Positions 4,250 through 26,100 of a stretch of 64,000 nucleotides of DNA are shown here, in pieces (position 1 is the stretch's first letter; every line of letters begins with the position of its first letter). The notes under the pieces are model-generated. The model saw nothing but the letters and a program-made list of their open reading frames with translations. It made no database searches and was not told the DNA's origin. The DNA comes from a bacterium (GTDB lineage: Bacteria > Patescibacteriota > Minisyncoccia > Phycocordibacterales > GWA1-40-21), in the NCBI GenBank assembly GCA_037131755.1, contig JBAXQJ010000001.1, forward strand, positions 16,176 through 80,175, in the 5' to 3' direction. Position numbers and translations under genes: made by a program.

Positions 4250-4253
4250 TCAA

Positions 4254-4611: not shown

Positions 4612-4678
4612 ACTTGCCGCTTTCGGCAAGTCCGTCCACCTTTTGTTATTTTTACCAATCCCTTAATCTTTAATCATC

Positions 4679-4948: not shown

Positions 4949-4950
4949 AC

Positions 4951-5608: not shown

Positions 5609-6049
5609 ATGAATTCAAGCACCGCATCGCCATTAGGAACAGACTTTGCGCAAGAGCTATTCCTCCACATGCAAGACGCAATTAGTGATGGAACAAAACA
5701 AGCCTGCCGAATGGTTTGGGACGTCATCCAGCAGTTTATGATGGAACACTGGTTCTTCCTGATTGTAGGGCTGGTGATTTTGTTCTGGATTGCCATCATT
5801 AGATGGATCTCAACCGGACGATGGGGTATGTTCGCCAGCCTGCTCTATCATTGCCTGTATTTTGGGACCCTACTTGTTGCCACGTTGATATTTGGCCCCG
5901 AAATCTTCGCCAGTGATTATACAAAGCTGTGGCTCTTTATCCTTTACCTAGTCTGCTTTGGGCTTGTTGGATGGTTCATACGAGCTACGGGTATTCTCGG
6001 CTGCTTATATCCTGACGGGAGAAGTAAGATCAGACGCCCGCGATTCTAG
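5609..6049 (+). CDS. Hypothetical integral membrane protein
   Basis: 146 aa with three or four hydrophobic helices (WFFLIVGLVILFWIAII..., LLVATLIFGPEIF..., LFILYLVCFGLVGWFI). No recognisable family. Confidence 0.4.
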   Translation: MNSSTASPLGTDFAQELFLHMQDAISDGTKQACRMVWDVIQQFMMEHWFFLIVGLVILFWIAIIRWISTGRWGMFASLLYHCLYFGTLLVATLIFGPEIFASDYTKLWLFILYLVCFGLVGWFIRATGILGCLYPDGRSKIRRPRF

Positions 6050-6116
6050 GCGCCGTAAAACACTGCACTGTTATGTTTCATGATCTGCCGGCACTGCGAC
6101 CGAAGGCAGAACAGAA

Positions 6117-7364: not shown

Positions 7365-7615
7365 AGTGACAGTTTATCATAACACGATTGAATTAGCCTC
7401 CAGATACTTCTCCAGACCAACTCAACCAGATTCGAACCTTATCTGGATCAACAAGGCCGTGTGGTGGATCAAAGGAACAGTATGGGATAACAAAGAAGAC
7501 CGGTTAGCTATGCAAACAGTGTCAAAATATTCTTGTTCCTCAACAAACTGAGGAGCTTGTTGAAATTCACTATTAGCGCTCACATAAATTGAGTCACTGT
7601 GATTATACATCTTGA

Positions 7616-9367: not shown

Positions 9368-11450
9368 TTGGTTTTGTCGATTCCGCTGGAGTGACTGGAG
9401 CTGATGGAGAAATCACAACAGGTTTTGAGGGTGGGGACAGATGGCGTGTTCCCTCAGCGAGCCAATTCAAACCCTCTGCTATATATCGTGGTACTATCCA
9501 TCCTGTCTGATTAACACCATATTCCAATGCGAAATCCGACTTTTTGGTAACACTTTCCGCTTCAGTATATGTCACATCCTCTATTGTGGCTAGCGGCTCC
9601 GTATCGAATTTGAATAATTTCAGGTTTGCCAAAATAAATGATTGCTCAAAACTTCGTCCGCATGGGTCGCCGACCTTTTCAGGCAATTCATAGGCTAAAC
9701 GAATGAAGTCATGAGTTTTCTCCGCATCTGTTTTTACTGCGAGTGCGCCTGGACTGATCGTCTTGTCATTGAACCAGTCTTTAATACAGGCATTACTCGT
9801 GTGAGTGCCTCCCGACACTTTACAAGCGATATATTTCTTTTTGTCATTCTGTATTGTCGAATCCAAATCTGTAATGACCAATGTTCGCAGTTCAAGAAAC
9901 TTAAGAAAATCAAAGAAAAGGTGGGCGTAAGCTCCCCCTACTTCCACCACCGAAATGTATTGGCTAGATAGGGGGCGCATAGTCGCAGACATTTTCGCAT
10001 CGACCTGCGGAATCATTAATGGCAGCAATATTCGTTCAGTGGTACCCTCGATAAAAATCGCCTTATCAGCAAACAGTAGGTCGCAGCGCGTCAGGGTCAT
10101 ATACTTATGGACAAATTCACGAGCCGCGGGCGCGGTAGAACTGAGTCCTTGTTGTAAATCTTTTATGACTGTGGAGCGGATGCTGGGCGAATGTTCATCC
10201 GATGTAGCCAAACAATAACGCATAGAATCAAATGGCGCCTTATTGGCGAGATGCGATGAGTGTGTCGTCACAACAAATTGAACAGGCCACGGAATTCCTT
10301 TGTTAAATGTGTCCGCAAAAACTTTGGCAATTTCTGCAAGTTTACAAATAAATACTTCCTGCATTTGCGGATGAAGGTGGGCTTCGGGTTCCTCAATAAA
10401 CACAAGATGTGTTACTGGCGCAGTTGGCAGAGTTTTAAAAGACTTAAAAAACTCCAGCAGTTTCAACAGAATATAGATTAGATTGCGTGCGCCCAAGCCA
10501 TTGTATGCTTCGGGCAGGTTGATCCCGTTTACGCCTGCATAATGCACTTTAGTGTGATCAGTTAGAAGGCGCTTAACATCTAATGTTGTTTCGGTAATTA
10601 AACCAGGATCGTTGAAACCTGGATATCCAAACAATGAAAATGCCGGAATCAAACCAGCAAGTTCAGTGTTAAAACCCTCGTCTATATTCTTTTGAATATC
10701 TTTTACTGCTGCCTCAAGTTTAAGAGCAATATCACGATCCTTCGAGTCGGCTGAGTCGGCTGTGGCATTTGCGAGAAGTCCTTCGAGGATTTTCCCCAAA
10801 ACATCCTTGTCACGGTGGCTAATATCATCCAAGCCGCGCTGCGCATTGATGAATCCACTTTGTATTAGAGCGCGGAGGGTAGACCAATCTACAGGCTTTT
10901 GGTTACTGGAATCATGAGGATCCTCAGCAAACACATTTGATGTGTAACACTTCGAGAGCCTTTCTTTAATACTTCGGAAAAAATCGATTTTGGTTAGTTT
11001 CTTGGCAGCAACTTCCCCAGTCGAAAGCTCCGCGAATAAAGAGTCAATTTCGCCAGATTTGAGCTCGTATCGGATAACGATGCAGGTATCTGTGCAATCG
11101 GGGTTCAAATCAATGATGAATTCCGAAAGCGGGCCAAAACTCGGGGTGCCTTTTTCATAGCGTACTGTTAGTCGAACTTCAATTACAGGGAGTGATGCGC
11201 GAATCTTGTCTTCGTCGACGCTAGTGGTCTTTAATATAAATGCCGTCCAGAAGTCCTCATGCGATGCAAGTGAGAAGTCCTCAAGTTGGAATGTGGGCGA
11301 TTTGTCCTGCAACAGACGTCGAAATAATTCAGTGAGCGAGGTCTTGCCACTATTGTTACGTCCTACAATGACAGTCGTTTGCTTTTCGAAGCAAAGCTGA
11401 ACTTTCCTCAATAATCGGAAGTTTTTGATTTCGACTTTATGAATATGCAT
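9360..11450 (-). CDS. gajA: OLD-family ATP-dependent endonuclease (ABC-type ATPase plus TOPRIM; Gabija GajA-like)
   Basis: N-terminal IKNFRLLRKVQLCFEKQTTVIVGRNNSGKTSL (AAA_21 P-loop) and VFIEEPEAHLHPQMQ (Walker B/D-loop), then a C-terminal TOPRIM with AIFIEGTTERILLP and LVITDLDS. A class 2 OLD protein followed by a UvrD helicase is the Gabija architecture. Confidence 0.75.
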   Translation of the reverse strand: MHIHKVEIKNFRLLRKVQLCFEKQTTVIVGRNNSGKTSLTELFRRLLQDKSPTFQLEDFSLASHEDFWTAFILKTTSVDEDKIRASLPVIEVRLTVRYEKGTPSFGPLSEFIIDLNPDCTDTCIVIRYELKSGEIDSLFAELSTGEVAAKKLTKIDFFRSIKERLSKCYTSNVFAEDPHDSSNQKPVDWSTLRALIQSGFINAQRGLDDISHRDKDVLGKILEGLLANATADSADSKDRDIALKLEAAVKDIQKNIDEGFNTELAGLIPAFSLFGYPGFNDPGLITETTLDVKRLLTDHTKVHYAGVNGINLPEAYNGLGARNLIYILLKLLEFFKSFKTLPTAPVTHLVFIEEPEAHLHPQMQEVFICKLAEIAKVFADTFNKGIPWPVQFVVTTHSSHLANKAPFDSMRYCLATSDEHSPSIRSTVIKDLQQGLSSTAPAAREFVHKYMTLTRCDLLFADKAIFIEGTTERILLPLMIPQVDAKMSATMRPLSSQYISVVEVGGAYAHLFFDFLKFLELRTLVITDLDSTIQNDKKKYIACKVSGGTHTSNACIKDWFNDKTISPGALAVKTDAEKTHDFIRLAYELPEKVGDPCGRSFEQSFILANLKLFKFDTEPLATIEDVTYTEAESVTKKSDFALEYGVNQTGWIVPRYIAEGLNWLAEGTRHLSPPSKPVVISPSAPVTPAESTKPNV

Positions 11451-11668
11451 GGTGTTTTGCTTTACTTTCTTTTAATAATAACCCGGCATTTGAATTGAGA
11501 CAAGCGATAGATGTCGGAGAGTTCAACCTTCCCTTGCTGAACTTGTTGCAGATGGAGGGGTGGCGTGACTACATTTCGACTAAGAAAGCGATTCGGTGGC
11601 GAGTTTACCAACATAGACGATAGATTTTGATAGGGATGATGAAAACAATCCTTTCGCCCTTTTAGACT

Positions 11669-14587
11669 TTGCCCTATACACCATTGCCGCGATTCAATAT
11701 CCTGAGGGGCATGTCATCTATTTCATGGAACGAGGTACGCGACAGGGCGCTTAAGTTCTCACGAAAGTGGGCTGAAGAAACCTCCGAAAGGGCGGAGGCC
11801 AAGACGTTTTGGGACCAGTTCTTCAACGTGTTTGGCGTTGAACGCCGTGCCGTTGCTAGTTTTGAGGAACCCGTCAGGAACCTGAAGGGGAAATACAACT
11901 ACATTGACCTTTTTTGGAAAGGGACGGTTCTGGCGGAGCACAAATCCCGTGGCAAGGATTTGGATAAGGCAGGCTCGCAAGCGTTCTCATACATCCAGGA
12001 CCTTGCCCGTGATGGCCGGATGGACGAAATCCCCCGCTATATCATCGTTTCAGATTTCGACAAGATTTACCTCCATGATTTGGACCCCGATGACCAGCGT
12101 GACCTTCAACTTTTCGACCAATGGCACGTCAAGACAACAGAAATCACTCTGAAGGACCTCCACAATCATGTCAGGGCGTTCGCGTTCATCAAGGGTGAAA
12201 AGGCTGTTCGTCTTGATCCTGAAGACCCGGCCAACCAGAAGGCAACCGACATCATGGGGGAACTGCATGACACCCTCAAGGATGGCGGCTATGAGGGACA
12301 CAATCTTGAACGGTTTTTGGTGCGGGTACTATTTTGCCTGTTTGCCGATGATACGGGACTGTTCGACCAGCCCCATTGTTTTCAATCGTACATAAAAAAC
12401 CACACCAGGGAAGACGGGTCGGACCTGGGAATGAACCTTGCACAGGTATTCGAGATACTGGATACCCACGAAGACAAGCGACAGAAGAATTTGGATGATG
12501 ATCTTACCGTCTTTCCCTATGTTAACGGCGGGTTGTTCCAAGAACGTCTTCCGTTTGTGCATTTCAACAGGGCTCAAAGGGAAGCCTTGCTTGCCTGCTG
12601 CGACTTCAATTGGTCGAAAATTTCCCCGGCCGTGTTCGGGTCTCTTTTTCAGTCGGTCATGGAACCTAAGGAAAGACGGCAATCTGGTGGGCACTACACC
12701 AGCGAGCGGGACATTATGAAGGTAATACGCTCATTGTTCCTTGATGACCTTCGGGCGGAATTCGGGCTGATTGAGCGCGATAAGTCAACCCGTAGGAATA
12801 CAAGGCTTGAGGAGTTTCATAGAAAACTTGCGAACCTTCGTTTCTTTGACCCCGCATGTGGTTGCGGGAACTTTTTGGTCATCACATACAGGGAATTACG
12901 CCTCCTTGAAATAGAAGTTCTCAAGGAACTGCACGATATTGAAGTGCCAAACGAACTGCACAAAAAAACCCAGTTGGTGACTGACATTCAGCATCTTTCT
13001 CTCTTGGATGTTGATCAGATGTATGGAATCGAAATCAGCGAATGGCCTGCCAGGATTGCCGAAGTAGCCATGTGGTTGCTTGACCACCAGATGAACCAGC
13101 TGTTAAGCGAAGCTTTCGGCCAGTATTACATCAAACTTCCATTAAGGGCTTCGCCGCACATTGTCTCCGAAAATGCCCTTCGTTTGGACTGGAAGAAAGT
13201 CCTGCCTCCCGAGAAATGTAGTTTCATCCTTGGCAACCCGCCGTTCGTCGGGAAACACCTGATGGACAAGGACCAGATGGCTGATATGGTTGCAGTATGG
13301 GGCGACGTTGATGGCTCTGGTATTCTTGATTACGTCACCGCATGGTACAGGAAGGCCGCCGAATACATCAAGGGTACGGACATACTTGTCGGGTTCGTCT
13401 CCACGAATTCGATATGCCAAGGGGAACAGGTTGGTATCCTTTGGAACACGTTGTTCCAGCGATATGGCCTTAAAATATTATTCGGACACCGTACGTTCAC
13501 TTGGGAAAGCGAAGCCAGGGGAAAGGCCCACGTCCACGTGGTCATTGTCGGCTTTTATAATTCCGCCAACCCATTAAAAATGACAAAAAGGATTTACGAA
13601 TACCACAAGTCCACGGACAAGATAACAGTTGAACATGTCAAAAACATCAGCCCGTATCTGATTGAGGGTTCAGACCTTGCCGTCATGGCTCAAACCAACC
13701 CAATATGCGAAGTCCCAGCCTGCGTATACGGCAACAAGCCAACCGATGGCGGCCATTTGATCATCGAAGAAGAAGACCGGGAGTCCTTCATCAGGGAAAA
13801 TCCTGACGCAAAGAAATACATTAAGAAATTGTTATGTGCTGAAGAATACCTACATTCTGTACCCAGGTGGTGCTTGTGGCTTGTCGGGGCCTCACCAGCC
13901 GACATCAAGAACATACCAGGATTGAGGAAACGAATTGAAGCGGTGAAGACTTTCCGCCTCAACAGCAAAAAGGTTCCCACGCAAAAGAAGGCCAGTGAGC
14001 CAACCCTGTTCGCGGAAATCCGTCAGCCGAAAGGCCGGTACATTGTCATTCCACAGCACTCATCGGAATCAAGGCCTTACATTCCTTTTGGCTATTTTGA
14101 CCCCGACGTGATTATTCATAACAGTTGCACCGCCGTTCCTGATGTGTCGTTGTTCCATTTTGGGGTGATGTCATCGGCAATCCATATGGCGTGGGTCAAG
14201 TTGGTATGCGGACGCATAAAATCCGATTACCGTTATTCGAACACTCTCGTTTATAACAACTTCCCTTGGCCAGAAAAAACAGCAGACAAGCAAAGGTCAG
14301 CCGTGGAAATTGCAGCACAGAAGGTGTTGGATGCCCGCAAGGCCTTTCCTGATTCGACACTTGCCGACCTGTATGACCCCGTGGCGATGCCGCCATTGCT
14401 GGCGAAGGCCCATGCGGAATTAGATAAAGCTGTAGACAGGTGTTACTGTCTAGAATCTTTCCCCACGGACCGGCACCGGGTGGAGTTTCTTTTTGCGATG
14501 TACGAGAAGATCGCTAACCCGCTGGCCATCGGGGGCAAGGAAAAGAAAGCTAAGAAGAAACCGAAAAGTCAGACTAATCATTCTTAA
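11669..14587 (+). CDS. MmeI-family Type IIL/IIG restriction-modification enzyme (fused nuclease, N6-adenine methyltransferase and target-recognition domain)
   Basis: N-terminal MmeI-like nuclease region TFWDQFFNVFGVERR...YIDLFWKGTVLAEHKSRGKDLDKA with an intact D...EHK motif. SAM motif I LRFFDPACGCGNFLV and motif IV ILGNPPFVG (gamma-class N6-A MTase). 972 aa, typical of the family. Confidence 0.75.
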   Translation: MPYTPLPRFNILRGMSSISWNEVRDRALKFSRKWAEETSERAEAKTFWDQFFNVFGVERRAVASFEEPVRNLKGKYNYIDLFWKGTVLAEHKSRGKDLDKAGSQAFSYIQDLARDGRMDEIPRYIIVSDFDKIYLHDLDPDDQRDLQLFDQWHVKTTEITLKDLHNHVRAFAFIKGEKAVRLDPEDPANQKATDIMGELHDTLKDGGYEGHNLERFLVRVLFCLFADDTGLFDQPHCFQSYIKNHTREDGSDLGMNLAQVFEILDTHEDKRQKNLDDDLTVFPYVNGGLFQERLPFVHFNRAQREALLACCDFNWSKISPAVFGSLFQSVMEPKERRQSGGHYTSERDIMKVIRSLFLDDLRAEFGLIERDKSTRRNTRLEEFHRKLANLRFFDPACGCGNFLVITYRELRLLEIEVLKELHDIEVPNELHKKTQLVTDIQHLSLLDVDQMYGIEISEWPARIAEVAMWLLDHQMNQLLSEAFGQYYIKLPLRASPHIVSENALRLDWKKVLPPEKCSFILGNPPFVGKHLMDKDQMADMVAVWGDVDGSGILDYVTAWYRKAAEYIKGTDILVGFVSTNSICQGEQVGILWNTLFQRYGLKILFGHRTFTWESEARGKAHVHVVIVGFYNSANPLKMTKRIYEYHKSTDKITVEHVKNISPYLIEGSDLAVMAQTNPICEVPACVYGNKPTDGGHLIIEEEDRESFIRENPDAKKYIKKLLCAEEYLHSVPRWCLWLVGASPADIKNIPGLRKRIEAVKTFRLNSKKVPTQKKASEPTLFAEIRQPKGRYIVIPQHSSESRPYIPFGYFDPDVIIHNSCTAVPDVSLFHFGVMSSAIHMAWVKLVCGRIKSDYRYSNTLVYNNFPWPEKTADKQRSAVEIAAQKVLDARKAFPDSTLADLYDPVAMPPLLAKAHAELDKAVDRCYCLESFPTDRHRVEFLFAMYEKIANPLAIGGKEKKAKKKPKSQTNHS

Positions 14588-15116
14588 AAATTTCGGTTTT
14601 GATCAATTCGGACACATCGCGCATCCTATCAACGTACAGTAACCCATTCAGGTGGTCAATTTCATGTGCAATTACTCTTGCCAAGAAGCCTTCGGCTTTG
14701 AGTGCTCGATTTGAACCAAAACGGTCTTGATATGAAATGCTAATTTTAGTTCTTCTTTCAACTTCGCCCGCATAATCAGGCAAGGACATACATGATTCCT
14801 TTTTTTTATCCTTTTTCCCGCTAGTTTCCAACACTTTTGGATTTACCAGAATTAACGTATCCTGCGATTTGTTTTTGTTTATATTTATAATCGTAAGCTT
14901 TAGTCGGATGCCAACCTGTGGTGCTGCTAAACCTATTGCGATTTTATGAGCTATAAAGGTCTCAACCAAATCATTAACTATCTCTTGAAATACCGGGCCA
15001 AAATCCAAGACCTCTTCACAGGCTACTCTAAGAGGCGGCTCTTTTGAACCGATTTCTTCAAGCTTGAGTTGTACTAGGGGTAAAATGCTCATGATAATGA
15101 TTAATTCATAATCCAC
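14574..15116 (-). CDS. def: Peptide deformylase
   Basis: GLAAPQVGIRLKL (motif 1), ESCMSLP (EGCLS-like motif 2) and HEIDHLNG (HEXXH motif 3). The 3' end is convergent with and overlaps MmeI by 14 nt. The real start may be the internal MSILPL (15092). Confidence 0.8.
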   Translation of the reverse strand: MDYELIIIMSILPLVQLKLEEIGSKEPPLRVACEEVLDFGPVFQEIVNDLVETFIAHKIAIGLAAPQVGIRLKLTIININKNKSQDTLILVNPKVLETSGKKDKKKESCMSLPDYAGEVERRTKISISYQDRFGSNRALKAEGFLARVIAHEIDHLNGLLYVDRMRDVSELIKTEIFKND

Positions 15117-15898
15117 TTTATTTCGTAGTGATATAGCAACTTAGGATTCGGAACAACCCATGATACTTCTCCATGCTTGTCCAAGGGTTTGGTGAACGAA
15201 TCCAGCGGCTTCCGCGATCCTATAGCGCTTGAAGTCTCACAAGTAACTTCTCTAACACCAAAACTTAATGGAAGTGATACATTAAGCTTAAGAGAATCTG
15301 TGGGTTCTTCCATCGTCGCTGAACAAAATGGAACAGCAACCTTCTCCAAGTCCTCAAGTTCCCATATAGCTTCGGTGTTGATACTTTCGCCCTTTTTTAA
15401 GGTTTTCTGTAGCCGAATTTCGTACGCATTCCAAATGTTTCGTTTCACAGTCTCAACTATATTATGTTCAGGAATACCACTTCTGAGAACTACTTTTCCT
15501 CTGCCTGTCCAGCGATATATATCTCTGTATACATCAAGACCGTTCTTTAAAGATTTAATGCATGTTCTCTTCTTATAACGCATATGAGTCTTGTCCACAT
15601 ACTCATAAGTTATTTCCCGTTCCAGAATTTTAAAGTCAAAGTCCAGTCGCGGAAAATTCGGACGGTGTCGGTCATGTTTCCTGTATATTGCCAACAATGC
15701 AAATGATATTGCAGTGCCAAACAGAATACCAATTTGGTATTTATACGGATCAAGAGATGTTATCTTGAGTGCGAGTATCTTCGAGCTCAACAAAGTTACA
15801 GCATATGCAAGAATGATCGCTAGACTATATTTAACAATATCATATAGCCCCTTCTTCAGAAAGTCCCGCCTTAATGACTCAATAAAATTATCGGCCAT
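15101..15898 (-). CDS. Hypothetical 2-TM membrane protein with a C-terminal soluble domain, overlapping and co-oriented with def
   Basis: 265 aa with two N-terminal TM helices (LAIILAYAVTLLSS..., IGILFGTAISFALLAIY) and then about 190 aa with no recognisable motif. Its stop overlaps the longest def start by 16 nt. Confidence 0.5.
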   Translation of the reverse strand: MADNFIESLRRDFLKKGLYDIVKYSLAIILAYAVTLLSSKILALKITSLDPYKYQIGILFGTAISFALLAIYRKHDRHRPNFPRLDFDFKILEREITYEYVDKTHMRYKKRTCIKSLKNGLDVYRDIYRWTGRGKVVLRSGIPEHNIVETVKRNIWNAYEIRLQKTLKKGESINTEAIWELEDLEKVAVPFCSATMEEPTDSLKLNVSLPLSFGVREVTCETSSAIGSRKPLDSFTKPLDKHGEVSWVVPNPKLLYHYEIKWIMN

Positions 15899-16154
15899 TT
15901 TTAACCTAATCTTTCTGTATCGACGGTACGTATAAAAATAAACAATCCCATCGTTTATTGTGACAAGTCACTACACGTAAGTGATCTTTTTATGATGAAT
16001 ATATACTTAACCCATATTTCAATAATATCAAAATAGATGATCAATGTCAAATACTAGACAAGAGTTTTGCGTTTACGAAACGCACGTATTATGGAGGATT
16101 TTATTGACTCCCTGACCGACTTACCCCACATAATACAGGCAAATGGAGGTGTTT

Positions 16155-16715
16155 ATGTTCAGCAAATCAAAACCTACGCAAGCCAACGTCCTCAGCCACT
16201 GGTACACTCCTGTTCCGAACTTCAGCATGTCCACCAAGGAATTCTACGACAAGGTGGAGAGAGAGCTTGGAACACAACAAGTGCCTGGCCTTAAAATATC
16301 CCGCCCTGAGCTTTCAGAAGGTGGGCTGTTTGCGGCCAAGCGTCAATATCTGCGCCTGAAACGGGATGACGTGTTGTTTGACATCTGTGCCTGTCCATTT
16401 GGTGTCAATTACTTCTTCTCCTGCCGTTTTGCAGCCACACCTCCTACTGGTCTCAAAGTATTGATTTCAAAGATCATCAACCTGATTCTGGAAAAGCTGA
16501 ATCTACGACTTGTCGATACATATCATAAGGAAGACACCCGTCTTATGTATATGACCGTGGTGGAAGGTGTCGTCAAGAAACTGGTGGAACAGGAAACAGC
16601 GGCCAAAGGCATTAAACTCTTGGATGAATACGAGCATGCTCCAATCCTGGGGGATCTGTATAAGTCGAAAAGAAAGATCTTAGACCAGAACCAAGTTGAG
16701 GTTATTGAGGCATAA
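16155..16715 (+). CDS. Hypothetical protein, first gene of a two-gene cassette with the large TraD/HerA-like ATPase
   Basis: About 186 aa (second ATG after a GGAGGTG Shine-Dalgarno). Its stop is 4 nt before the next start. No recognisable family (...CACPFGVNYFFSCRFAATPP...). Confidence 0.5.
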   Translation: MFSKSKPTQANVLSHWYTPVPNFSMSTKEFYDKVERELGTQQVPGLKISRPELSEGGLFAAKRQYLRLKRDDVLFDICACPFGVNYFFSCRFAATPPTGLKVLISKIINLILEKLNLRLVDTYHKEDTRLMYMTVVEGVVKKLVEQETAAKGIKLLDEYEHAPILGDLYKSKRKILDQNQVEVIEA

Positions 16716-16718
16716 CCA

Positions 16719-19700
16719 ATGGCCTCAATTGATGAGAAGTTCAGTGAGCAGTTCTATCACTGGGAACGGCGAGGGCGGGGCTGGCAGGTTTTTGATGAGC
16801 CAGTTTCACCTGAACCGCCTTTCCGTCCCTTCTATATATCCCCGGATGCCCCCATCATTGATGACGGGGCTCGACCGACTGTTCTGAGTGCCTGGGCGAA
16901 TCGATTGAAAGGTTTGGTTGGCGGAGGTGGACAATCGGTTGCTGTCACCAAAGCTTTACCCTCTGATATTGAAGAGCCCGAACCGCAATCACTGATCCGG
17001 GATGAATTGATTGAACTCCAAGTCGTCCTACCGGTGAATCTGAATATCCGGAGGGATGATTTCGAAGAATTCCTCTTGGCAATGTCGCTTTGTAATGAGC
17101 CGATTACCTTTGAAGTCCTCGGCCTATCCTCCCATATCTCCGTGCAATTGGTTGCACATCCCTCTGATGAGCAAATGGTCATTCAGAGATTGAAGGCCTT
17201 CTTCCCTGAAGCCAGTTTCTTGCCTCGGAAAAACGCACTGATTGATGCTTGGGTGAAAGAGCCAGACAGTTATACCGGGGTGGTTGAATTCGGTTTAGCC
17301 AGACCTTTTATGTTTCCTCTGGCAACTCGGCGAGTGGACCCCTTTGTCGGCATCATTGGGGCGTTGTCGGAACTGACAAATGATGAGTTGGGGTTATTCC
17401 AAGTCATCTTCCAGCCAGTGCAAGCTCCATGGGCAGAAAGCATGCTGGATGCCATTACAGACCATCAAGGCGGGGCTTTGTTTGTTAATGTCCCAGAATT
17501 AACAACAGCTGCCAAAGAAAAAGTATCCAGCCCCATCTATGCCGCCGTCGTGCGTATTGCTACGCAATCCCCATCAATTGAGCGGGCTTGGGAGATTGCC
17601 CGTAATCTATCAGGAGCCCTCACGGTCTTTGCTCATCCCCATGGTAATGAACTAATTCCGCTCCGTAATGATGACTATCCCTTTGATCTGCATATTGAAG
17701 ATGTCTTGCGGCGGCAATCTCGGCGTACCGGGATGCTCCTAAACAGCACGGAATTGGTCGGCTTCGTTCATTTACCATCGGTTGATGTTCGCTCGTCTAA
17801 ACTGGAACGATATACAGTTAAAACCAAACGGGCTCCGCAATCAGTCCGTAAGGATGAAGGGCTATATTTAGGGGACAATTTACATAATGGGGAGGCGGTG
17901 TCAGTCGCCCTGTCACCGGAGCAACGTGTCCGGCATACGCATGTGATTGGTGCTAGTGGTACCGGCAAGTCCACCCTGCTATTCAATCTCATTCGTCAAG
18001 ATATTGAGAATGGTGATGGGGTGGCGGTGCTAGACCCTCATGGCGATCTGGTGGACCAGCTTTTGGGTATTATCCCTGAAAATCGCATTAATGATGTCAT
18101 TTTGCTTGATCCCTCCGATGAGGAATACTCCATCGGCTTCAACATCCTATCCGCCCATTCAGAACTCGAAAAGAACCTGCTGGCCTCAGACTTGGTTTCC
18201 GTCTTCCAGCGCTTGTCCTCCAGTTGGGGTGATCAAATGGGGTCAGTGTTGAATAATGCGATATTGGCTTTCCTCGAAAGCAGCAAGGGTGGGACACTGG
18301 CGGATCTCCGTCGTTTCCTTTTAGAGTCAGATTTTCGGAATGCTTTCCTGGAAACGGTCAATGATCCTGAAGTGGTGTATTACTGGCGCAAGGTCTTCTC
18401 ACAACTGTCCGGTAACAAGTCCATCGGGCCAGTGTTGACTAGATTGGATACTTTTCTCGGGCGGAAACCAATTCGCTATATGGTCAGACAGTCCACCAAC
18501 CGGCTTGATTTCGGGAACATCCTCGATACCGGCAAAATCTTCTTGGCCAAGCTACCGCAAGGTATCGTTGGTCGGGAGAATTCATATTTGCTAGGTACGC
18601 TCCTTGTTTCCAAATTCCAGCAATTAGCAATGGCGCGGCAAAAGCAGGTGGCCGCCAGCCGTAAAGACTTCTGGCTCTATATTGATGAGTTCCATAATTT
18701 TATTACGCCGTCCATGGCTGAAATCTTATCTGGCGCTCGCAAATATCGACTTGGCCTAACTCTGGCCCATCAGGAATTGCGCCAATTACAAAGGGACTCT
18801 GAAGTGGCCAGTGCAGTCTTGTCAAATGCTGGCACACGGATTTGTTTCCGGGTTGGTGATGATGATGCTAAGAAATTAGCTGATGGTTTTTCGCTCTTTG
18901 AAGCTCAAGACTTGCGGAATCTGGACACTGGTAAAGCGGTCTGTCGAGTTGAGCGTAGTGATTATGACTTCAATCTGACCGTCCCTCTACCGGATCAGCT
19001 TGATGAGGAAGCCATGGAGGATCGCCGCCACTCCGTTATCCTGGCCTCTCGCTCCAAATATGCCACCTCTTGCTCAGAGCTTGAAAAAGCTTTCAAGGAG
19101 GCCGCAGAGACTAGACCGGTTATACCGGAACCAAAGAAAAAAGCTCCATTTGTAGTTGTAAAAAGCAAAGGACCGGAACCTACACCGTTACCGATAGAGA
19201 CTCCGCAACCAGTCATTCCACTTGAGAATATTCCGGCTCCTCGACAGACAACCGCCGATCTAGGCCGAGGGGGTGCCCAACATCAGGCGATACAGCAAAG
19301 ACTCAAGGTAGAAGCCGAAGCCGTCGGCTTTCGTGTCATTGTTGAGAAGCCAACCCCTGACGGCGGCAGCATTGATCTAGTCTTGAGTCGGGGCGGAATA
19401 TCCTTGGCTTGTGAAATTGAAGTGACTACTTCAATGGATCATAAGGTGAAGAATGTTTCTAAATGCCTCAAGGGTGGGTATCAGCAAGTCATTGTTATCA
19501 CCCAACAGGAAGGCGATTTGAAGAAACTGAAGATTGCGGTCGATAGCAGTTTGGGAGAAGAAAAGGCCCAGCCTGTCCTATACTTCCTTCCGGATCAGTT
19601 TATTGAATATATCCAGACGATACCGCAAGAGGTCGTGGTGCCGAAACCAGATCAACCGAAAATCCGGCGTGGTTTCAAAGTGCGAACCAACCACATTGCA

Positions 19701-19790
19701 TTATCTCCCCAGGAAATGCAGGCACGAGAGGGTGCGGCGATTGCTGCAATTGCCGAAGCGATGAAAAACGGTTCAACGCAATTTGCCTAA
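16719..19790 (+). CDS. Large P-loop NTPase of the TraD/VirD4/HerA (DUF87-like, FtsK-HerA superfamily) type, with an about 380-aa N-terminal unknown region and a C-terminal putative PD-(D/E)xK nuclease-like domain
   Basis: Walker A HTHVIGASGTGKSTLLFNLI followed by AVLDPHGDL (the coupling-protein/HerA signature). Walker B-like FWLYIDEFHNFITPS. C-terminus GFRVIVEKPTPDGGSIDLVLSRGGISLACEIEVTT resembles a restriction-endonuclease-like D...ExE core. 1023 aa. Confidence 0.55.
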   Translation: MASIDEKFSEQFYHWERRGRGWQVFDEPVSPEPPFRPFYISPDAPIIDDGARPTVLSAWANRLKGLVGGGGQSVAVTKALPSDIEEPEPQSLIRDELIELQVVLPVNLNIRRDDFEEFLLAMSLCNEPITFEVLGLSSHISVQLVAHPSDEQMVIQRLKAFFPEASFLPRKNALIDAWVKEPDSYTGVVEFGLARPFMFPLATRRVDPFVGIIGALSELTNDELGLFQVIFQPVQAPWAESMLDAITDHQGGALFVNVPELTTAAKEKVSSPIYAAVVRIATQSPSIERAWEIARNLSGALTVFAHPHGNELIPLRNDDYPFDLHIEDVLRRQSRRTGMLLNSTELVGFVHLPSVDVRSSKLERYTVKTKRAPQSVRKDEGLYLGDNLHNGEAVSVALSPEQRVRHTHVIGASGTGKSTLLFNLIRQDIENGDGVAVLDPHGDLVDQLLGIIPENRINDVILLDPSDEEYSIGFNILSAHSELEKNLLASDLVSVFQRLSSSWGDQMGSVLNNAILAFLESSKGGTLADLRRFLLESDFRNAFLETVNDPEVVYYWRKVFSQLSGNKSIGPVLTRLDTFLGRKPIRYMVRQSTNRLDFGNILDTGKIFLAKLPQGIVGRENSYLLGTLLVSKFQQLAMARQKQVAASRKDFWLYIDEFHNFITPSMAEILSGARKYRLGLTLAHQELRQLQRDSEVASAVLSNAGTRICFRVGDDDAKKLADGFSLFEAQDLRNLDTGKAVCRVERSDYDFNLTVPLPDQLDEEAMEDRRHSVILASRSKYATSCSELEKAFKEAAETRPVIPEPKKKAPFVVVKSKGPEPTPLPIETPQPVIPLENIPAPRQTTADLGRGGAQHQAIQQRLKVEAEAVGFRVIVEKPTPDGGSIDLVLSRGGISLACEIEVTTSMDHKVKNVSKCLKGGYQQVIVITQQEGDLKKLKIAVDSSLGEEKAQPVLYFLPDQFIEYIQTIPQEVVVPKPDQPKIRRGFKVRTNHIALSPQEMQAREGAAIAAIAEAMKNGSTQFA

Positions 19791-19857
19791 CATGACGAAC
19801 TGAGCAAAACAGGTATACACCCTGCAATTCTTATTAGGCGGATTAAGATTTACTGAC

Positions 19858-20127
19858 CTATACACGGCGGCATTGTCTTCTTATTGCCGCCTCAATCTCC
19901 GCTGGCACCTGCACACCATCACTCTCAATCTGGAAATTGCATACATTGCAACGCATCGCGGCACTTATACTTTCTTCCACGAGCCCCTGATGAACACTCC
20001 AGGTCACTTTAACAGAACCCTTGCATGTAGGACATTCGAACTGCTTCACCGGACTAAGAGTATTACGAATAATTTCTTGATTAAAAGCTGTCAGTATTTC
20101 ATTGGTGTTTTGCGGCATATTTACCAT
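19858..20127 (-). CDS. Small zinc-ribbon protein; candidate immunity protein for the upstream Rhs toxin
   Basis: About 89 aa from the internal Met MVNMPQNT (the long-ORF start at 20214 would overlap the Rhs gene by 94 nt). Contains CPTCKGS...CNVCNF (two CxxC pairs). Sits immediately 3' of the Rhs C-terminal toxin domain, the canonical immunity position. Confidence 0.45.
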   Translation of the reverse strand: MVNMPQNTNEILTAFNQEIIRNTLSPVKQFECPTCKGSVKVTWSVHQGLVEESISAAMRCNVCNFQIESDGVQVPAEIEAAIRRQCRRV

Positions 20128-23100
20128 CCTTTCTTCAAGTAATAACGAATCAAAACCTTCCTCATATATTCCTCCATAATCGGATGGTGCGGGGATGGAA
20201 TACCGCGTTTCCAAAAACGATGATGGAGCTCTTCATGCAATAAGGTCTCTCGAAGAGCCCCAAGAGACTTAAATGCCCGAGGTCCAATTTTTGAAAATGC
20301 ACCGATTTGCGAAAGCCCTAACTGACTAAGTGCCGGAGCAAATTCTGGTGGTTGCATAAACGACAATCCACTAAAGTCACTTTTGATAACTTCAGCAATA
20401 GTTGTCTGGCTTTCAACGAGTGGCACCCCATTATATGAGTTTCCTAACTTTGATTCTTCCTTTGACACATCTTTAAGTATTTCACGTGTGGCGCGTGTGG
20501 TACTTTGCGCAAGATTTCTTAAAGCTTCCTTGGTCGCTTGAATAGATCCGGCCAACGTTACGCCAGGGCTGTATGATGCCCCAACACCAGTACCCGTTAA
20601 CAATACCTGTCCGCCACCTATTAGAGCTCGCGATACGCGATCGATGTCTTTAAGTTTCTGTTGAGTAATTACATCATAACCAAACCCAGATTCATAAAGA
20701 TTAGCGATACCAGTCCAATTGACGATATTGAATGCTATTCCCTGGGAAACTGCCGCTGTCGAATCCCACACACCACCTCTTGCATCCATGCTACGAAGCA
20801 TTATAATCGATGTATTATCAACTGCCTGATTATAAGCGTTACCATTAAAAAGGTCTTTGACTCCTTGCTTGGCCCCGCTTCCCATCTCGATCAAAGATTC
20901 CCCGAGCGAAATGTCAAAGGCATCAGCCTCATCGCCTGAATAACCCTGCCCAAATATCCAAGACAAAGCTGATTCCCCAAGCGGATCAAATTTATTTATG
21001 GGATCGTTTTCACAAAAAGCAGTTAAGTTAATTCCTCCTTTTTCGGCCAGTGGATCACGAGTGATCCACTTGGCGATGGACGGATTGAAAAACCTATAAC
21101 CGAAATAATAGAGTTCTGTTTCGCTGTCATAATATTTGCTTTGGAACCGGAAGGGGCAAACATCACATCGTGAGCCCCATGACCCAACAAGTTTGCCGAA
21201 GGGCGCATAAAGGTAATTTGCCACAATCTTTTTTGTGGCGGCATCAACAACATGCACAATATTTCCGTTATGATCCGCCAGCGGCAGGTAAATATTTGTG
21301 GTTCCAGCATCTATTGCCTTGATTGCAACCAAAGCGCCAACTCCGCCTGACTGGTGATCAAATTTGCCATTTCGTTGACCTTTGAGATCCAGCCCCCATT
21401 GATAGTCACGGGTAGACGTTGTAGTGAGGGTATGGTCAGTAATTGTCTCGTGTATGAGATTCCAGCCATCATAGATAAAGGAATAGGTAAACGTCCCAAC
21501 CCAAGATCCTGGGGACCCGCTGTAGACCTTCTTGGTAGCCCGTCGGCCATCTTGGAAATAGGTATAAGTCTCCCTGATGTTTGGAGTGACACCAACGTTG
21601 ATTACCTCGCGTAATCGCCCTAAAGCATCATAAGAGAAGCGATAGCGGCTATCATTGGTAACTGAAGCACGCGCATCATAAATTGGGCTTTCGGAAGTTT
21701 GCGCGAGGTAAAGGGTTCCCGTTGTGTGGGCGATAACATCATTACTAGACACTGGGTCAAACCAAACTGCGGTGACAATGATATTGGTCGAGATTGCCGC
21801 CGAGGTGTTATCAATAACCAAAGTCGCACGGAACCATTCGCCATTGCGGTCAGTCGGCTGGTAATTGACGGTGATGTTCGCATTGGTGGCCGCGATGCCG
21901 ACAACCTCGACCTTGTTACTCCAAGCTCTGGTTATCTGCACATTCAGATTGTTCGGTGTAAATGTTGGAATAGGAGTCGAGGAGGCAGCTAATCGCCCAT
22001 AGGCGGTCGGATTTCCGATCGAGTCATATGTCGCGCCGAATTGCATGCCATAATACTCTGACCCATCGGCAAAATACCGGCGAGCGGAAATCAATTGCTT
22101 CCGGCTATCATATTGATAATCCCAGTGGGAACCGCTGATATCAATAATTTTGGATATCTGATCCGAGTTAGTGACATAGGAGTAAGCATAATTGGCAATA
22201 TTGCTGCCACTGACCGAAAAGGCAATGTTACTCATTCGGTCATTTGCCAGATCCCAGGTTAAATTTCGTGTGAGGATATCGACGCCCTGAACAGAGGTAA
22301 CAGCAGTAGCGCACAATAAACTGTTTGTGGCATAGATATACCTGACACAGACATCACCGTTACTGATAGAAGAGACCACTGACCGGAAATCATAACTCAG
22401 GGTGGTTTCATTCACGGCCCCGCCTATTACGAACTTTGAACCGTTGCGGTCGTAGTTCAGAGGATTATAAGAATAAGTCAATTCGGCTGGCGGCAAGGCA
22501 TCACCACTGACCGAATTTGTCAGCACCAAACCATCGAGGGAATAGTCAAAGGTATTTGTAGTCCCAGCATGTGTCGCCACAACTGGACGCCCGAGGCGAT
22601 CAATAACCGCTGCGGCCAGCGGACCAGTGGCATCAGAATATGTGATGCTAGCAAGGTCACCAGCCGAATTATAGTTGTGAGTTGCCACCACACTGTTTGC
22701 ATCGGTAAGAGTCAGCAATTGACCATTATCACGATAGGAATAAGTTTCAACGGGTAAACCGCTAATATTCTTTTGAGTAAGATAGCCGGTAGTGGCATCA
22801 TGTATCCATTGGGTATTTACAGCGGTTCCGGCCCGCAAAGTAATCATATTTGTCAGCCGTCCCTGAGAGTCGTACTGGTAAGTGACATCTAACGTGCCAG
22901 TATCGTATTTGCGCTTTAACAATCCACTTGTATAGTAATCATAACGAATTTCACGGCCATCACTGTGACGTACTTTGCTGATAAGTTCAGTACCTGGGTT
23001 GTATGTGAACTTAACAGGGAGTTTTGTCGGATCAGGCAGAATAATTTCGCTGATGCGCCGCTCTGTGTCGCGATTGATTATGGTTGTGCCTAACCGGGAA

Positions 23101-26100
23101 TGTTGAATACTCGACAAAGCCCCCAACCCATCATAGTTGAAAGTTTTTGTCTCCCACAAAATCCCGTCAGAGCCGTAATTCTTTTCCGTCTTAAGCTGCC
23201 ATTTCTCAAAAGCCTGAATAATTTTCGTGCCATCACTTTGGCAATTAGTCACAGAGTAAGAGCCACCAAAACTATAGCCTGAACGGCTGGCTTGATTAGT
23301 ACGGGAAACATCAATCGACAATACTCTTCTGTTATCCAATGAGACCTCCGAGCTCGCCAACATAAATGAGCTAGAGCTGTACATCTGGGGATAAGTGGTA
23401 TAGGCGCATTTAACACCTGATGCAGATACGCTTCGGTTGCGGGTAAGATATCGGTCACTACTGGCCGCCGTAAGTGCCTGATCACCGTTTTGATCTATCC
23501 CGGCGTCTGCCGGCTCATTTTTTCCATTGTAATTCATGACACTTACAATACTGGCTTCATCAACGTCGCCAGCGAAACGGGCCTGCGAGTCATATGACAT
23601 CGTAGCATCACTACTTGCACCTGAATGACGAGAACGGGCCGGTTGACCTAAAAGGTTTAAGTAGGTCTTCTCCCATTCGGTCGCAGCACTTCCGACTAAT
23701 CGAATTTCCTTGGCATAGAACTGTCCGGCTTCAATTCCGTATTCGAATTGCAAGTCAGCTTTGGCGCCTGAACCGGAGATTTCCTTCAGAGATCCATCCA
23801 AGTAATAGTCCTTAATGATCACGGCACCATTTGGTGCTGTTATTGTGCATCGGGTGCCGTATGACGGGTTCGCATAGGAGTAGACGGTAGAGCCGAGCAA
23901 ATCCGTTACCGTGATTGCCCGCCCTAACGCATCGAAAGAGGTGCTAACAGTGCGAGAGGCCCCATCTGCTCCGGATTCCGTTAGCTTGGTAATGTTCAAT
24001 AACGGATCATATTCAAACTGATTGGTAATTCCGGTTCCACCTCGCAAGACCGATTTCAAGGTGCCTTGAGAGTAATAGTCTAAAGTCATCAAGCTACCGT
24101 CAGCTTCAGAAATAGTGGCTGGGCCGAATAAGCTCAAGTTACTATTGGTCGTCGCTGTGCCATCGAGATCAGTTGAGACCAGAAGTCGACCGAATGGATC
24201 AACTGAGGAGATAATACTTTCAAACGTCACCCCGGAATCCGCATCCACTGTCATATTGGTTTCCATGACCCCGAAATTGTTTACCGTATTGGTTTTCGTT
24301 ATTCCGGTACTGATGACAGAACTGGCCGCCAGTCGCCCAAAGGATGTGAAAACGTTATTCGATGTGCCCAACACCTGGTAAGTCAAAACAGCGCTCTCGG
24401 CTGGATTTTTCGCAAAGATCAAAAGACCATTGGTAATACCACCACTTGCGAATACGTTGGTGCTTACAAGGTTCCCCGCACCATTCCAACTGCCACTGGA
24501 GTTAGTGCATTGCTGAATAATAGTCTGGGTTGATCCTGAGTAGGAATACAAGGTGAGACCGATCAACGTGGCATCATAAAGATTAGTGACTGCCCGTGGC
24601 CGCTCAATCATATTCGTTATGTTTGCAGTATCGCCAGAATTGGCTGGATATCCGTAACCGGTCGAACGTGTCGAACCATTACCGACAGGGGTCGCCTCCG
24701 TTACAATCCATCCGGTACTTGGGTCATAGGAGTAGTCAGTGTAAGTCCCGTCCGGGAAAGTAACTTTCTTGATTTTTGCTTGCTTAGGTAAGCCATTCGT
24801 ATAGCGCCCAACGGCTGTATCATATTCATTTGTAACCGCTTTGGAATCACCATTCACGGTTCGGGAATAAACGACTGGATGATTGTCGGCATTGAATGAG
24901 ATGCTTTCTGTCAAATTCCCGAAATCGTAATAACTAGAGGATAACGTCACGGTCCGCGCACTACCCGCGGGAGCGGTCTGGGTTCGGGTAACAGTACCCC
25001 AAGGATATGTAATGGTGTTGCCGGAAATAGAGGCATTGGATTTGTCGATACCGGTAATCCCGGATTTGGATATTCCAGAAAACATTTTGCTGGAATCTGA
25101 AGCTAATGTAGTGGTTATGGTTTGGCTTAAATCCTTGGAGGCATACGATACCTGGCTGACTAAGCCACTGGTCATGGTGAGAGTGACCTTGTAGCGAGCA
25201 CTATCCGCCGTGTTGGGGAAATTAATGGTTGAGCCAGGGATGGAGCTGGAAGTAACTTTCGACGAACTGCCAGCCATATTGGTGACGTTGGTAATGCCAC
25301 CATCAAATTGATGAATAACCCCCGACTCATAATACAGGTTGAATTTCAGGTCGGTATTATTCGTCGGTGTTAAGTCTCGAAGAATATAAGTTCTATTTGA
25401 GTTGATTCCGGTCGGATATCCGACAGGACTGAATGTTGAAGCGGCACTATCCCAAGGAAAGTCAAAGATTACCACATTTCCCCTTGGCCGAATTACCGCC
25501 GCCAACTTATTAGTTCGTGTATTTGATTTCACGGCACCGCTTTGCAAGATGCGAGTTCTTACACTCAAGGTTTGATAGGGTCCATCAGCATCCGTGGTGT
25601 ATGGTGTCAGATATTGAAAGGGCAGATTAGTTGTTCCACCTTGCGCTATATATGCATGGACTGGTAAACCAGCATACCACGCAGGCGTTGAGGCTAACGG
25701 GACAATTATTTGTGGTTGATCCCGGTCATCGTTGAATGTCGCTACTCCGGTATCATTGCCAAAGGCATTGAGATCAACTCCCGGATCAACCACATCATCC
25801 CGATCAGTGTCAGGCTCCTCAACACAGGGATGTATGGTCGGAGGAAGGTTAGTCGGGAAATAGTATTGGATTATAGTATTTACGTCGTAATCGTGCATGA
25901 CATATCCAGCAGTGTTTGAGCCAATCGGGATTGGTGCGGTATTAAAGACGCTGGCACCGATCGCCACTGAAGACGTAACGCCACCACTATAGGTTGTTGG
26001 CCCAGACAACCTATAGGAATTTGTATAGTAAAGGCCCGTGCCTAAATCTGAGAAATATACATTGGTAGACGACATGTAGGGCCATACACCGTAGTACCAA

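Follow-up and report, generated by a model that had tools for sequence, protein, structure and literature searches.

In some streptococcal integrative mobilizable elements (IMEs), a VirD4 coupling protein is found together with a MOBC relaxase and a serine integrase (PMC5357655). Some coupling proteins without a transmembrane domain (TMD) are paired with a membrane protein, and the coupling protein of CloDF13 is MobB (PMC7431656). VirB3 is a small protein with two transmembrane (TM) segments that wraps the N-terminal domain of VirB4 (PMC9259494). The gene pair analysed here resembles each of these systems in part. [quoted passage not shown] The VirB4/TrwK plus VirB3/TrwM pair has in common with it a VirB4-like N-terminal domain and a small upstream gene, while the HerA-nuclease defence systems (DUF4297-HerA, SIR2-HerA) and HerA-NurA follow the same logic, in which a ring ATPase of the FtsK/HerA superfamily is combined with a nuclease of PD-(D/E)xK type and a second, small gene.

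The pair is located on the + strand of the window (the whole stretch of 64,000 nucleotides, 64 kb, that was analysed), and all its parts given below are on this strand. An earlier note had described a two-gene cassette of a small protein and a 1023-aa protein, and both open reading frames (ORFs) were indeed found to be present and intact. The small gene (16155 to 16715) most likely encodes a product of 186 aa, the size claimed before, because GGAGG stands 6 nt ahead of the ATG at 16155 and the homologues of the small protein begin with MFG; an alternative upstream ATG at 16143 gives an ORF of 190 aa (16143 to 16715). The large gene (16719 to 19790) encodes the 1023-aa protein, in which a VirB4-like N-terminal domain is followed by an ATPase of TrwB/TraD type and then by a PD-(D/E)xK domain. 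The tight coupling holds, but the gap is of 3 nt instead of the 4 nt given earlier, with the TAA of the small gene ending at 16715 and the ATG of the large gene at 16719. In view of the number of homologues (more than 3184 for the large protein and 458 for the small protein) and the low dN/dS ratios against the nearest relative (0.12 and 0.08 for the two genes), the pair does not represent chance ORFs. Purifying selection acts on both genes (dN/dS about 0.1), with no acceleration of rate, and the full length of the large protein, about 1010-1065 aa, is kept in 120 of 120 homologues among the matches listed.

The N-terminal domain of the large protein (aa 1-385; 16719 to 17873) corresponds to DUF8128 in the homologues, a term that was not found in the literature searched, and its predicted fold resembles that of the N-terminal domain of VirB4/TrwK, the VirB4 domain being the best structural match. 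The P-loop ATPase core (aa 386-794; 17874 to 19100) carries the Walker A motif HTHVIGASGTGKS at aa 406 (nt 17934-17981, including GASGTGKS with K417), VLDPHGDL at aa 437 (nt 18027-18050) and the Walker B motif LYIDEFHNF at aa 653 (nt 18675-18701, including LYIDEF with D656/E657). The Pfam models TrwB_AAD_bind (51.6 bits, cut-off 20.5), T4SS-DNA_transf (34.7 bits, cut-off 20.1), TraG-D_C (28.8 bits, cut-off 22) and DUF87 (29.5 bits) all match this core above their cut-offs, and the best PDB sequence match of the large protein is TrwB (E 7e-5). The NCBIfam coupling-protein models stay far under their cut-offs (SXT_TraD, 48.9 versus 366 bits; conju_CD1115, 46.9 versus 250 bits). Taken together, the Pfam, NCBIfam and PDB sequence matches agree with the assignment to the TraD/VirD4/HerA class proposed earlier. 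The large protein has no own TM helices, as judged by the lack of any hydrophobic 19-mer that reaches 1.6 (maximum 1.34). A linker (aa 795-844; 19101 to 19250) rich in proline, of low conservation and of variable length in the alignments, connects the core to the C-terminal region.

The C-terminal segment had been suspected to be a restriction-endonuclease fold, and the domain at aa 845-975 (19251 to 19643) is predicted to have the PD-(D/E)xK core, alpha-beta-beta-beta-alpha-beta. Here GGSIDLVL starts at aa 882 and ACEIEVTT at aa 897, so that all the motifs quoted before were located in the protein. Five residues of the domain, H855, E876, D886, E899 and K915, are invariant in the family; D886 is placed on beta2, E899 on beta3 and K915 on the next helix. 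At the +2 position, 112 of 121 sequences have S and this copy has E, not K; E909, kept in 120 of the 121, is replaced by K in this copy. Variant PD-(D/E)xK active sites of such a kind exist, as in BamHI and Cfr10I. The domain is a putative nuclease. It is present throughout the family (1288 representatives were matched at 50% clustering by this domain alone), and is followed in every homologue among the matches listed by a conserved tail of about 45-50 aa, here aa 976-1023 (19644 to 19790, including the stop codon), which is predicted to form a long helix.

This architecture separates the large protein from the known systems. In contrast to the type IV coupling proteins, it adds the 385-aa VirB4-like N-terminal domain and the invariant C-terminal domain; to our knowledge, no canonical or otherwise described coupling protein carries a nuclease domain. 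The likeness to HerA-Sir2 and DUF4297-HerA noted earlier holds for the logic but not for homology, because the PADLOC HerA models reach at most 29 bits, within the P-loop alone (aa 375-478), and the NCBIfam model HerA_antiphage gives 23.4 bits versus a cut-off of 800. Furthermore, the nuclease-like domain is fused here and is not a separate subunit, the partner carries neither SIR2 nor DUF4297, and the genomic context of the family is the core of mobile elements, not defence islands.

The small partner belongs to no known family: no meaningful Pfam or PDB match was obtained among its 458 homologues, and no match to PADLOC, SIR2, DUF4297 or PrgI/VirB3 models. In 60 of 70 loci its gene stands immediately before the large gene, which bears out the co-conservation of the pair. 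A hydrophobic segment is found in 115 of 120 partner homologues among the matches listed, most of which carry a TM hairpin. The partner in the window has no such hairpin (19-mer maximum 1.35 versus 1.6), nor have its closest relatives, and the segment is missing from 20 of 72 partners, so that membrane anchoring by the partner would not be obligatory. The gene order and the hairpin of most homologues mirror VirB3-VirB4, in line with the encoding of VirB3 just upstream of virB4 in virB operons. Together with the structural match of the N-terminal domain to VirB4 and with weak NCBIfam matches to the CedD, CedB and VirB4 models, this raises the alternative that the pair is a genuine VirB3/VirB4 pair of a cryptic, highly reduced machine for type IV secretion or DNA uptake. 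We consider it very unlikely, since the VirB4 HMMs remain far under their cut-offs (TIGR00929, 32.1 versus 643 bits), the VirB4 Pfam models, AAA_10 included, give no match, and coupling-protein models score higher. The large protein also has the extra nuclease-like domain, and the partner is more than twice as long as PrgI/VirB3, unrelated to them in sequence, and without TM helices here and in the 20 loci mentioned. Finally, an actinobacterial relative has a true VirB4 beside it as a distinct protein, and no mating-pore genes (VirB6, VirB8, VirB10-like, pilins) were found near the pair, either in the window or at those homologue loci that are annotated.

That relative is the nearest annotated one (812 aa, 30% identical over 598 aa, E 3e-64) and is encoded in the T4SS cluster of an Embleya plasmid, flanked on one side by a VirB4-like ATPase and on the other by a MOBC relaxase, and so fills the coupling-protein slot of this cluster; a cell-wall hydrolase, PrgI and a TrbL-like protein are encoded there too. 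As to the wider family, which occurs in Verrucomicrobiota, Acidobacteriota, Binatia, Nitrospirota, Planctomycetota, Sumerlaeota, Bacteroidota and others, we compared 80 genome loci from at least 10 phyla, and made an HMM census of the 43 loci with flanks of at least 8 kb on each side, using integrase, MOBC relaxase, short TraD-like ATPase, primase and ArdC within 10 kb as mobile-element markers. Any such marker was present in 37 of the 43 loci, an integrase in 32 (often immediately downstream), a mobilisation marker in 25 and a MOBC relaxase in 11; no mobile-element marker was detected by the census in the other 6. A serine recombinase is encoded downstream in 35 of 62 loci and a tyrosine integrase in another 10; in 17 loci a large serine recombinase follows the large gene on the same strand within 700 nt, and in 12 loci a ComM/ChlI-family gene of about 370 aa comes after the recombinase, which we take for a comM that the insertion has disrupted. 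One locus (L088) carries a complete-looking element of about 13 kb in the order short ATPase, MOBC, primase, RadC, NUDIX, partner, large gene and serine recombinase. The cultured Mucilaginibacter pankratovii ZT4R22 (L065) is among the carriers of a native element with the pair. In several Acidobacteria loci the MOBC gene is adjacent to and divergent from the partner gene, and a three-gene run of short ATPase, partner and large gene was found in at least 5 loci.

The expectation of the earlier note that conjugation-type genes would be out of place is not borne out by this census. From the census and the T4SS/MOBC setting of the Embleya relative, the conjugation-type context that was to count against a defence reading was largely found, though this context is itself uncharacterised. 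Nor do defence genes recur as neighbours of the pair: queries with the MmeI-type enzyme, the methyltransferase of locus L040, Gabija and the DUF4238 gene gave no recurrent homologue among the loci compared, GajA matching one locus.

We therefore propose, with about even confidence, that the pair is an orphan copy of a coupling-protein-like ATPase-nuclease module of mobile elements, because elsewhere it sits at the integrase end of small integrative elements, beside relaxase and primase. The source would be a conserved two-gene module of compact integrative, probably mobilizable, elements, whose other genes are those for a relaxase of the MOBC type (Replic_Relax), a short ATPase resembling TraD, a primase of the DnaG type, ArdC or RadC, and a large integrase of the serine or the tyrosine class. 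In this reading the large protein would act as a ring ATPase of the VirD4/TrwB class without its own membrane anchor, and the small protein as its dedicated partner, providing in most relatives a two-helix anchor as TraI does for the TMD-less TraJ of pIP501. The ATPase would oligomerise on the element DNA and drive its translocation or hand-over, at the expense of ATP, during excision-linked transfer, and the nuclease-like domain may nick or trim the transferred DNA. The window copy would then have been orphaned, its partner having lost the membrane hairpin. Some observations point away from mobilisation: the second, short TraD-like ATPase usual in these elements could itself be the coupling protein, the nuclease-like domain is invariant in the family and foreign to canonical coupling proteins, and mating-pore genes near the pair, as well as any marker at 6 of 43 loci, are lacking.

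The proximity to recombinases can also be read as a role in intracellular maintenance of the element, neither in transfer nor in defence, such as the processing or resolving of the excised circle, help in replication or segregation, or DNA handling as an accessory of the adjacent serine recombinase. In 10 loci a recombinase begins within 130 nt past the large gene on the same strand, which suggests co-transcription, and the primase and RadC of the elements imply replication of the excised form; in addition, motors of the FtsK/HerA class act in segregation and end-processing. We consider this reading improbable, since the pair persists without a recombinase (in the window, in contig P0004 and in the 6 of 43 loci), the closest annotated relative belongs to a T4SS transfer cluster, and adjacency to tyrosine integrases as well indicates no specific tie to serine recombinases.

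The neighbours of the pair in the window were as claimed. Upstream, PADLOC identified GajA (910 bits) and GajB (875 bits), and a IIG enzyme of the MmeI type (1174 bits) was found as well; downstream lies an RHS-repeat protein with a Tox-MPTase5 tip. A DUF4238 gene is also among the neighbours. By tblastn, no relaxase, integrase, primase, ArdC or second ATPase was found in the 64-kb window; it contains no T4SS, and no direct repeats of at least 16 nt flank the region around 3900-20400. The pair here thus lacks both a TM anchor or membrane partner, as type IV coupling proteins have, and the integrase, relaxase and delimitable ends of an IME, which many homologue loci do possess. As the window lacks detectable element genes, the pair cannot serve in mobilisation locally. 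In a relative at 69% identity the synteny on the Rhs side is the same, also without recombinase, and this, together with the purifying selection, argues for an element-independent function. With the element genes missing and the hairpin lost, yet selection maintained, the present role of the pair in this genome may differ from the ancestral one.

Such a function could be defence. In that case a conjugative coupling protein would have been exapted as a translocase-nuclease for defence against phages or plasmids, or for their exclusion. It would load onto invading DNA and degrade it, at the membrane when the partner has a hairpin; like many defence systems, it would be carried at the integrase-proximal end of mobile elements, and it could survive as an orphan in defence islands. 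The position between Gabija, the MmeI-type enzyme, the DUF4238 gene and the Rhs toxin with no mobility genes nearby, the selection and shared orphan synteny just described, and the nuclease-like domain, with conserved residues of catalytic type, on a ring ATPase, which is HerA-nuclease logic, are consistent with this possibility, as are restriction-modification and methyltransferase genes directly upstream in L040. The mad8 model of MADS is the best PADLOC match of the core (66 bits), and with weak DndH and SspH matches in relatives it suggests an earlier recruitment of this class of ATPase to defence. We nevertheless regard defence as possible and not as probable. PADLOC matches neither the partner nor the large protein beyond the ATPase core, so that, as claimed, no named defence system was recognised; the recurrent neighbours are integrases, relaxase, primase and second ATPase instead of defence genes; and the otherwise conserved E909 is K in this very copy. 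The integrase-adjacent position is fixed across phyla, and the large protein diverges in step with the adjacent recombinase (rho 0.68) to much the same degree as with the partner (rho 0.70), which is the behaviour of a core gene and not of cargo. Furthermore, several related elements, each with its own copy and its own recombinase, occur together in one genome (loci L041, L047 and L048 of a Sumerlaeota MAG). The defence reading is thus weakly supported, and the earlier view that an undescribed defence system is the best account of the pair is not borne out; its more specific form, a previously undescribed anti-plasmid/anti-phage exclusion system of compact integrative elements with orphan, membrane-detached copies domesticated by the host in defence islands, seems to us rather doubtful.

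The family is large and spread over many phyla, with a Pfam DUF as its sole label, and the host lineages are those of soil and freshwater, the mobile elements of which are almost unstudied. It marks a recognisable class of compact integrative elements, some apparently beside a disrupted comM, and its combination of VirB4-like and nuclease-like domains has not been described among coupling proteins. Should the nuclease take part in transfer, the picture of DNA processing in mobilisation would change; should the module serve exclusion or defence, it would be a new immune system, with conjugation machinery exapted into immunity in a manner kindred to Zorya, which uses a flagellar stator. The window also gives a caution that a gene pair does not become a defence system by lying in a defence island.

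Membership in MADS was also considered. The mad8 model consists of 314 positions and covers the core only (53-73 bits in relatives); nothing in MADS corresponds to the partner or to either flanking domain, the eight-gene operon mad1-mad8 is absent, and PADLOC detected no other mad gene except a 13.5-bit P-loop match to mad3 and a mad2-like match (132 bits). The mad8-like and mad2-like genes belong to separate transcription units with two opposite-strand genes between them, and MADS was rejected on these grounds. The mad2-like match comes from the MmeI-type enzyme nearby, for which the assignment as a IIG restriction enzyme, at 1174 bits, is by far the better one.

Both open reading frames of the putative cassette described in the earlier note were found in the window together with all the motifs quoted there. 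The large gene was called at 16719-19790 on the forward strand (1023 aa), its product carrying Walker A at aa 406, VLDPHGDL at 437, Walker B at 653, GGSIDLVL at 882 and ACEIEVTT at 897. The small gene on the same strand could start at 16143 (190 aa) or at ATG 16155 (186 aa); since GGAGG is located 6 nt before ATG 16155 and the homologues of this partner begin with MFG..., its product is likely to be of 186 aa. The TAA of the small gene ends at 16715, leaving 3 nt before the large-gene start at 16719, so that the tight coupling of the two genes holds, with the gap corrected from 4 to 3 nt. The neighbours were also as described, with genes for a DUF4238 protein, GajB and GajA (Gabija) and an MmeI-type IIG enzyme upstream, and an RHS-repeat protein downstream. 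The interpretation of the pair survived in part only, and a clean new defence system as then proposed is not what we find.

Within the large protein, the segment aa 390-740 was assigned by sequence models to the TrwB/TraD/VirD4 branch of the FtsK-HerA superfamily: TrwB_AAD_bind, T4SS-DNA_transf, DUF87 and TraG-D_C all exceeded the Pfam cut-offs and TrwB was the top match in PDB sequences, and none of the curated NCBIfam thresholds for TraD, VirD4, VirB4 and HerA was approached. PADLOC analysis of both genes plus flanks gave generic ATPase-core matches only (mad8 and HerA), and the named defence systems were set aside. A MADS-like reading, combining a mad2-like MmeI enzyme with a mad8-like core, was rejected as well, the other mad genes being absent and the MmeI protein being a complete IIG enzyme.

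The C-terminal domain of the large protein has a nuclease fold, of which the cleavage activity is only putative, especially for the window copy. After comparison of 56 sequences from many phyla, H855, E876, D886 and K915 were found to be invariant and E899, E909, N912 and C916 nearly so; the classical ExK lysine is missing, position 901 being S in 112 of 121 sequences and E in the window copy. At aa 909, within the helix after beta3, the window copy carries K (codon 19443-19445) against E in all 120 other aligned homologues, and this E909K replacement is its sole violation among 217 near-invariant columns. E909K together with Glu901 could reflect either compensating changes within the active site or its inactivation. 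The profile of this domain gave no significant match in PDB, and relatedness to MOBC relaxases was rejected after HHalign of both profiles (1% probability). In a search of 1.84 billion representatives, all of the matches listed for the domain were the same protein or its C-terminal fragments, with no other architecture among them.

For the small partner we collected 458 homologues, and found no relative in Pfam, PADLOC, NCBIfam or PDB, the profile searches against PDB and Pfam being also empty. In 60 of 70 loci its gene directly precedes the large gene on the same strand, at a distance of a few nucleotides. In most homologues, which have a length of about 235-245 aa, some 60 residues form a hydrophobic insert resembling two transmembrane helices; a hydrophobic 19-mer was detected in 115 of 120 homologues among the matches listed. 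In the window partner and its closest relatives a short amphipathic stretch replaces this insert, and partners without the hairpin are seen again in further clades (20 of 72 loci). The large protein would be a DNA motor resembling coupling proteins and fused to a nuclease domain, to which the dedicated partner would usually supply the membrane anchor. There is a precedent in TraJ and TraI of pIP501, for which pairing of a coupling protein lacking a transmembrane domain with a distinct membrane protein has been proposed (PMC7431656).

One genome per species was scanned, yielding 189 relatives; 80 loci were retrieved, and ORFs were called in all of these and clustered. The loci belong to Verrucomicrobiota, Acidobacteriota, Binatia, Nitrospirota, Planctomycetota, Sumerlaeota, Bacteroidota (cultured Mucilaginibacter among them), a CPR bacterium and other lineages. 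Apart from the two genes themselves, the commonest neighbour is a large serine recombinase, which is present downstream in 35 of the 62 loci with room for it, 10 within 130 nt on the same strand and 17 within 700 nt; a tyrosine integrase takes its place in 10 more loci. An opposite-strand gene of the ComM/ChlI family (about 350-390 aa) follows the serine recombinase in 12 loci (L013, L014, L024, L031, L033, L043, L052, L060, L081, L083 and others), which we read as a putative disruption of comM by insertion; if comM is truly disrupted, it would be a preferred integration target of these elements. Recurrent upstream genes code for a Replic_Relax protein (MOBC relaxase superfamily; PMC5357655), a roughly 400-aa TrwB-like ATPase that is a paralogue of the core of the large protein, a DnaG-type primase, an ArdC-N/MPTase protein, alone or accompanied by RadC, and a PDDEXK_1 nuclease. 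A marker census with HMMs from the neighbour clusters, using the 43 loci with at least 8 kb on both sides, detected the partner in 41, an integrase in 32, a mobilisation marker in 25, and any mobile-element marker in 37, leaving 6 with none. Two small genes were noted after the large gene: in four Verrucomicrobia loci the gene immediately after it encodes a DUF6788 protein of about 120 aa (e.g. L016, 6080-6451), and an opposite-strand ORF of about 80 aa, possibly an excisionase or regulator, lies between it and the recombinase in 7 loci (e.g. L005, 11148-11411).

One locus, L088 (1430-14563), appears to contain an entire element, of about 13 kb, in the order short ATPase, MOBC, primase, RadC, NUDIX, partner, large gene, two small ORFs, serine recombinase and host genes. 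A NUDIX protein, Pif, reportedly limits redundant transfer in actinomycete integrative elements, and by analogy the NUDIX hydrolase of this locus is a possible parallel. In pairwise comparisons over 17 loci, the divergence of the large protein followed that of its neighbouring recombinase (rho 0.68) about as closely as that of its own partner (rho 0.70), with host phylogeny contributing too. Furthermore, several MAGs carry two to four copies of the module: one of Sumerlaeota has four (L041, L047, L048 and L085), the first three with their own recombinase and L047 and L048 also with the short ATPase, one of Binatia has L039 and L045, and one of Chloracidobacterium L067 and L073. Such co-residence is typical behaviour of mobile elements. 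The best-supported reading, to which we give an even chance, is that the window pair is a stray copy of the core module of compact integrative mobilizable elements. Mobilizable elements with their own coupling protein, MOBC relaxase and serine integrase are known (PMC5357655), and the mobilizable plasmid CloDF13 encodes its own coupling protein, MobB (PMC7431656). The main rival, that the module is, or in the window became, a DNA-degrading exclusion or defence device, appeals to the motor-plus-nuclease logic and to the island context of the window pair, but must face the integrase-adjacent position fixed across phyla, the several co-resident copies per genome, defence models that match the P-loop core alone, and neighbours that are mobile-element genes with recurrent defence genes lacking; we consider it unlikely. 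The MmeI, Gabija and DUF4238 genes of the window had no recurrent homologues in the compared loci, and among the large neighbours in recombinase-less loci PADLOC identified restriction-modification and methyltransferase genes in L040 only. A role of the pair in element maintenance is a smaller rival, less probable again.

No full-length relative of the large protein was found on the plasmid or phage records searched, and the plasmid search with the partner gave zero matches. The closest partial relative is an 812-aa protein on an Embleya plasmid (30% identity over 598 aa, E 3e-64), which aligns to aa 193-744 and is without the nuclease domain. Its gene occupies the coupling-protein position of a Gram-positive-type T4SS cluster, in the order TrbL-like protein, PrgI (VirB3-like), VirB4-like ATPase, 812-aa protein, Replic_Relax/MOBC relaxase and NlpC/P60+SLT hydrolase. 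The separate VirB4-like ATPase of this cluster (AAA_10, TraG P-loop, TraC_F_IV) counts against another minor rival, that the pair is a true VirB3/VirB4 pair from a cryptic secretion machine, which we hold to be improbable. A more distant relative of 913 aa is encoded near the conjugation genes for TcpD and TcpE on a 65-kb Bacillus subtilis plasmid. A viral origin was rejected, with just 3 matches in IMG/VR and distant partial matches only from Bacillus phages. Neither the family nor DUF8128, the label of the N-terminal domain in homologues, was described in the literature searched, which also contained no experimental study of any member. The family is a very widespread, uncharacterised group of coupling-protein/VirB4-like ATPases with a nuclease fusion, large and unexplored, and serves as a marker for a class of mobile elements from little-studied phyla.

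The window copy itself is an orphan. The recombinase, tyrosine integrase, ComM, MOBC, ArdC, primase and short-ATPase sets matched, by tblastn of the 64 kb, the large gene only; Pfam scans of the other large ORFs of the window detected housekeeping and island genes and no integrase; long direct repeats flanking 3900-20400 were not found, and scans for promoters and terminators did not outperform those of shuffled sequence. The right-hand synteny (large gene, small reverse-strand ORFs, Rhs, LamG/TSP3 protein) recurs on a contig that encodes a 69%-identical large protein and is also without a recombinase; in a relative of 58% identity, a serine recombinase separates the pair from an Rhs locus. 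An old insertion beside the Rhs locus, with later loss of mobility genes, is a plausible history. Against an 82%-identical relative, dN/dS was 0.12 (large gene) and 0.08 (small gene), and a relative-rate count gave 22 unique changes in the window lineage versus 18, with no acceleration, indicating that selection still acts on both proteins. Decay of an orphan copy was rejected on these grounds, with 1 of 217 near-invariant columns violated. Retention of the pair without element genes favours the defence reading, and an exapted immunity or exclusion device keeps a modest chance, well short of even.

Several other features of the window were recorded. The Rhs gene (20121-26858, reverse strand) encodes RHS repeats and a Tox-MPTase5 tip; a zinc-ribbon-like ORF of 118 aa on the same strand (19858-20214), overlapping its 3' end, is probably the immunity gene. 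The MmeI gene and the pair are separated by a peptide deformylase gene (Pfam E 5e-43) and a 265-aa gene with zero family matches, which occupy 14574-15898 on the reverse strand, the former overlapping the end of the latter by 16 nt; a deformylase borne on an island is unusual. The DUF4238 protein gene (6117-7364, reverse strand) adjoins Gabija and was without a match in PADLOC v2; DUF4238 is reportedly a single-gene defence candidate. The variable region seems to begin at a GGGLSTGP-rich ORF of 143 aa (4951-5382, reverse strand), which includes 9-10 tandem copies of a 24-nt unit (5042-5353) and lies just downstream of an XRE-type HTH gene (4679-4948), after rpsT. A gene at 34319-35521 on the forward strand, located some 390 nt before a tRNA-Arg gene (35909-35981), codes for a 400-aa protein with the CTD7 domain of ABC-three-component (ABC-3C) conflict systems and possibly marks a second small island.
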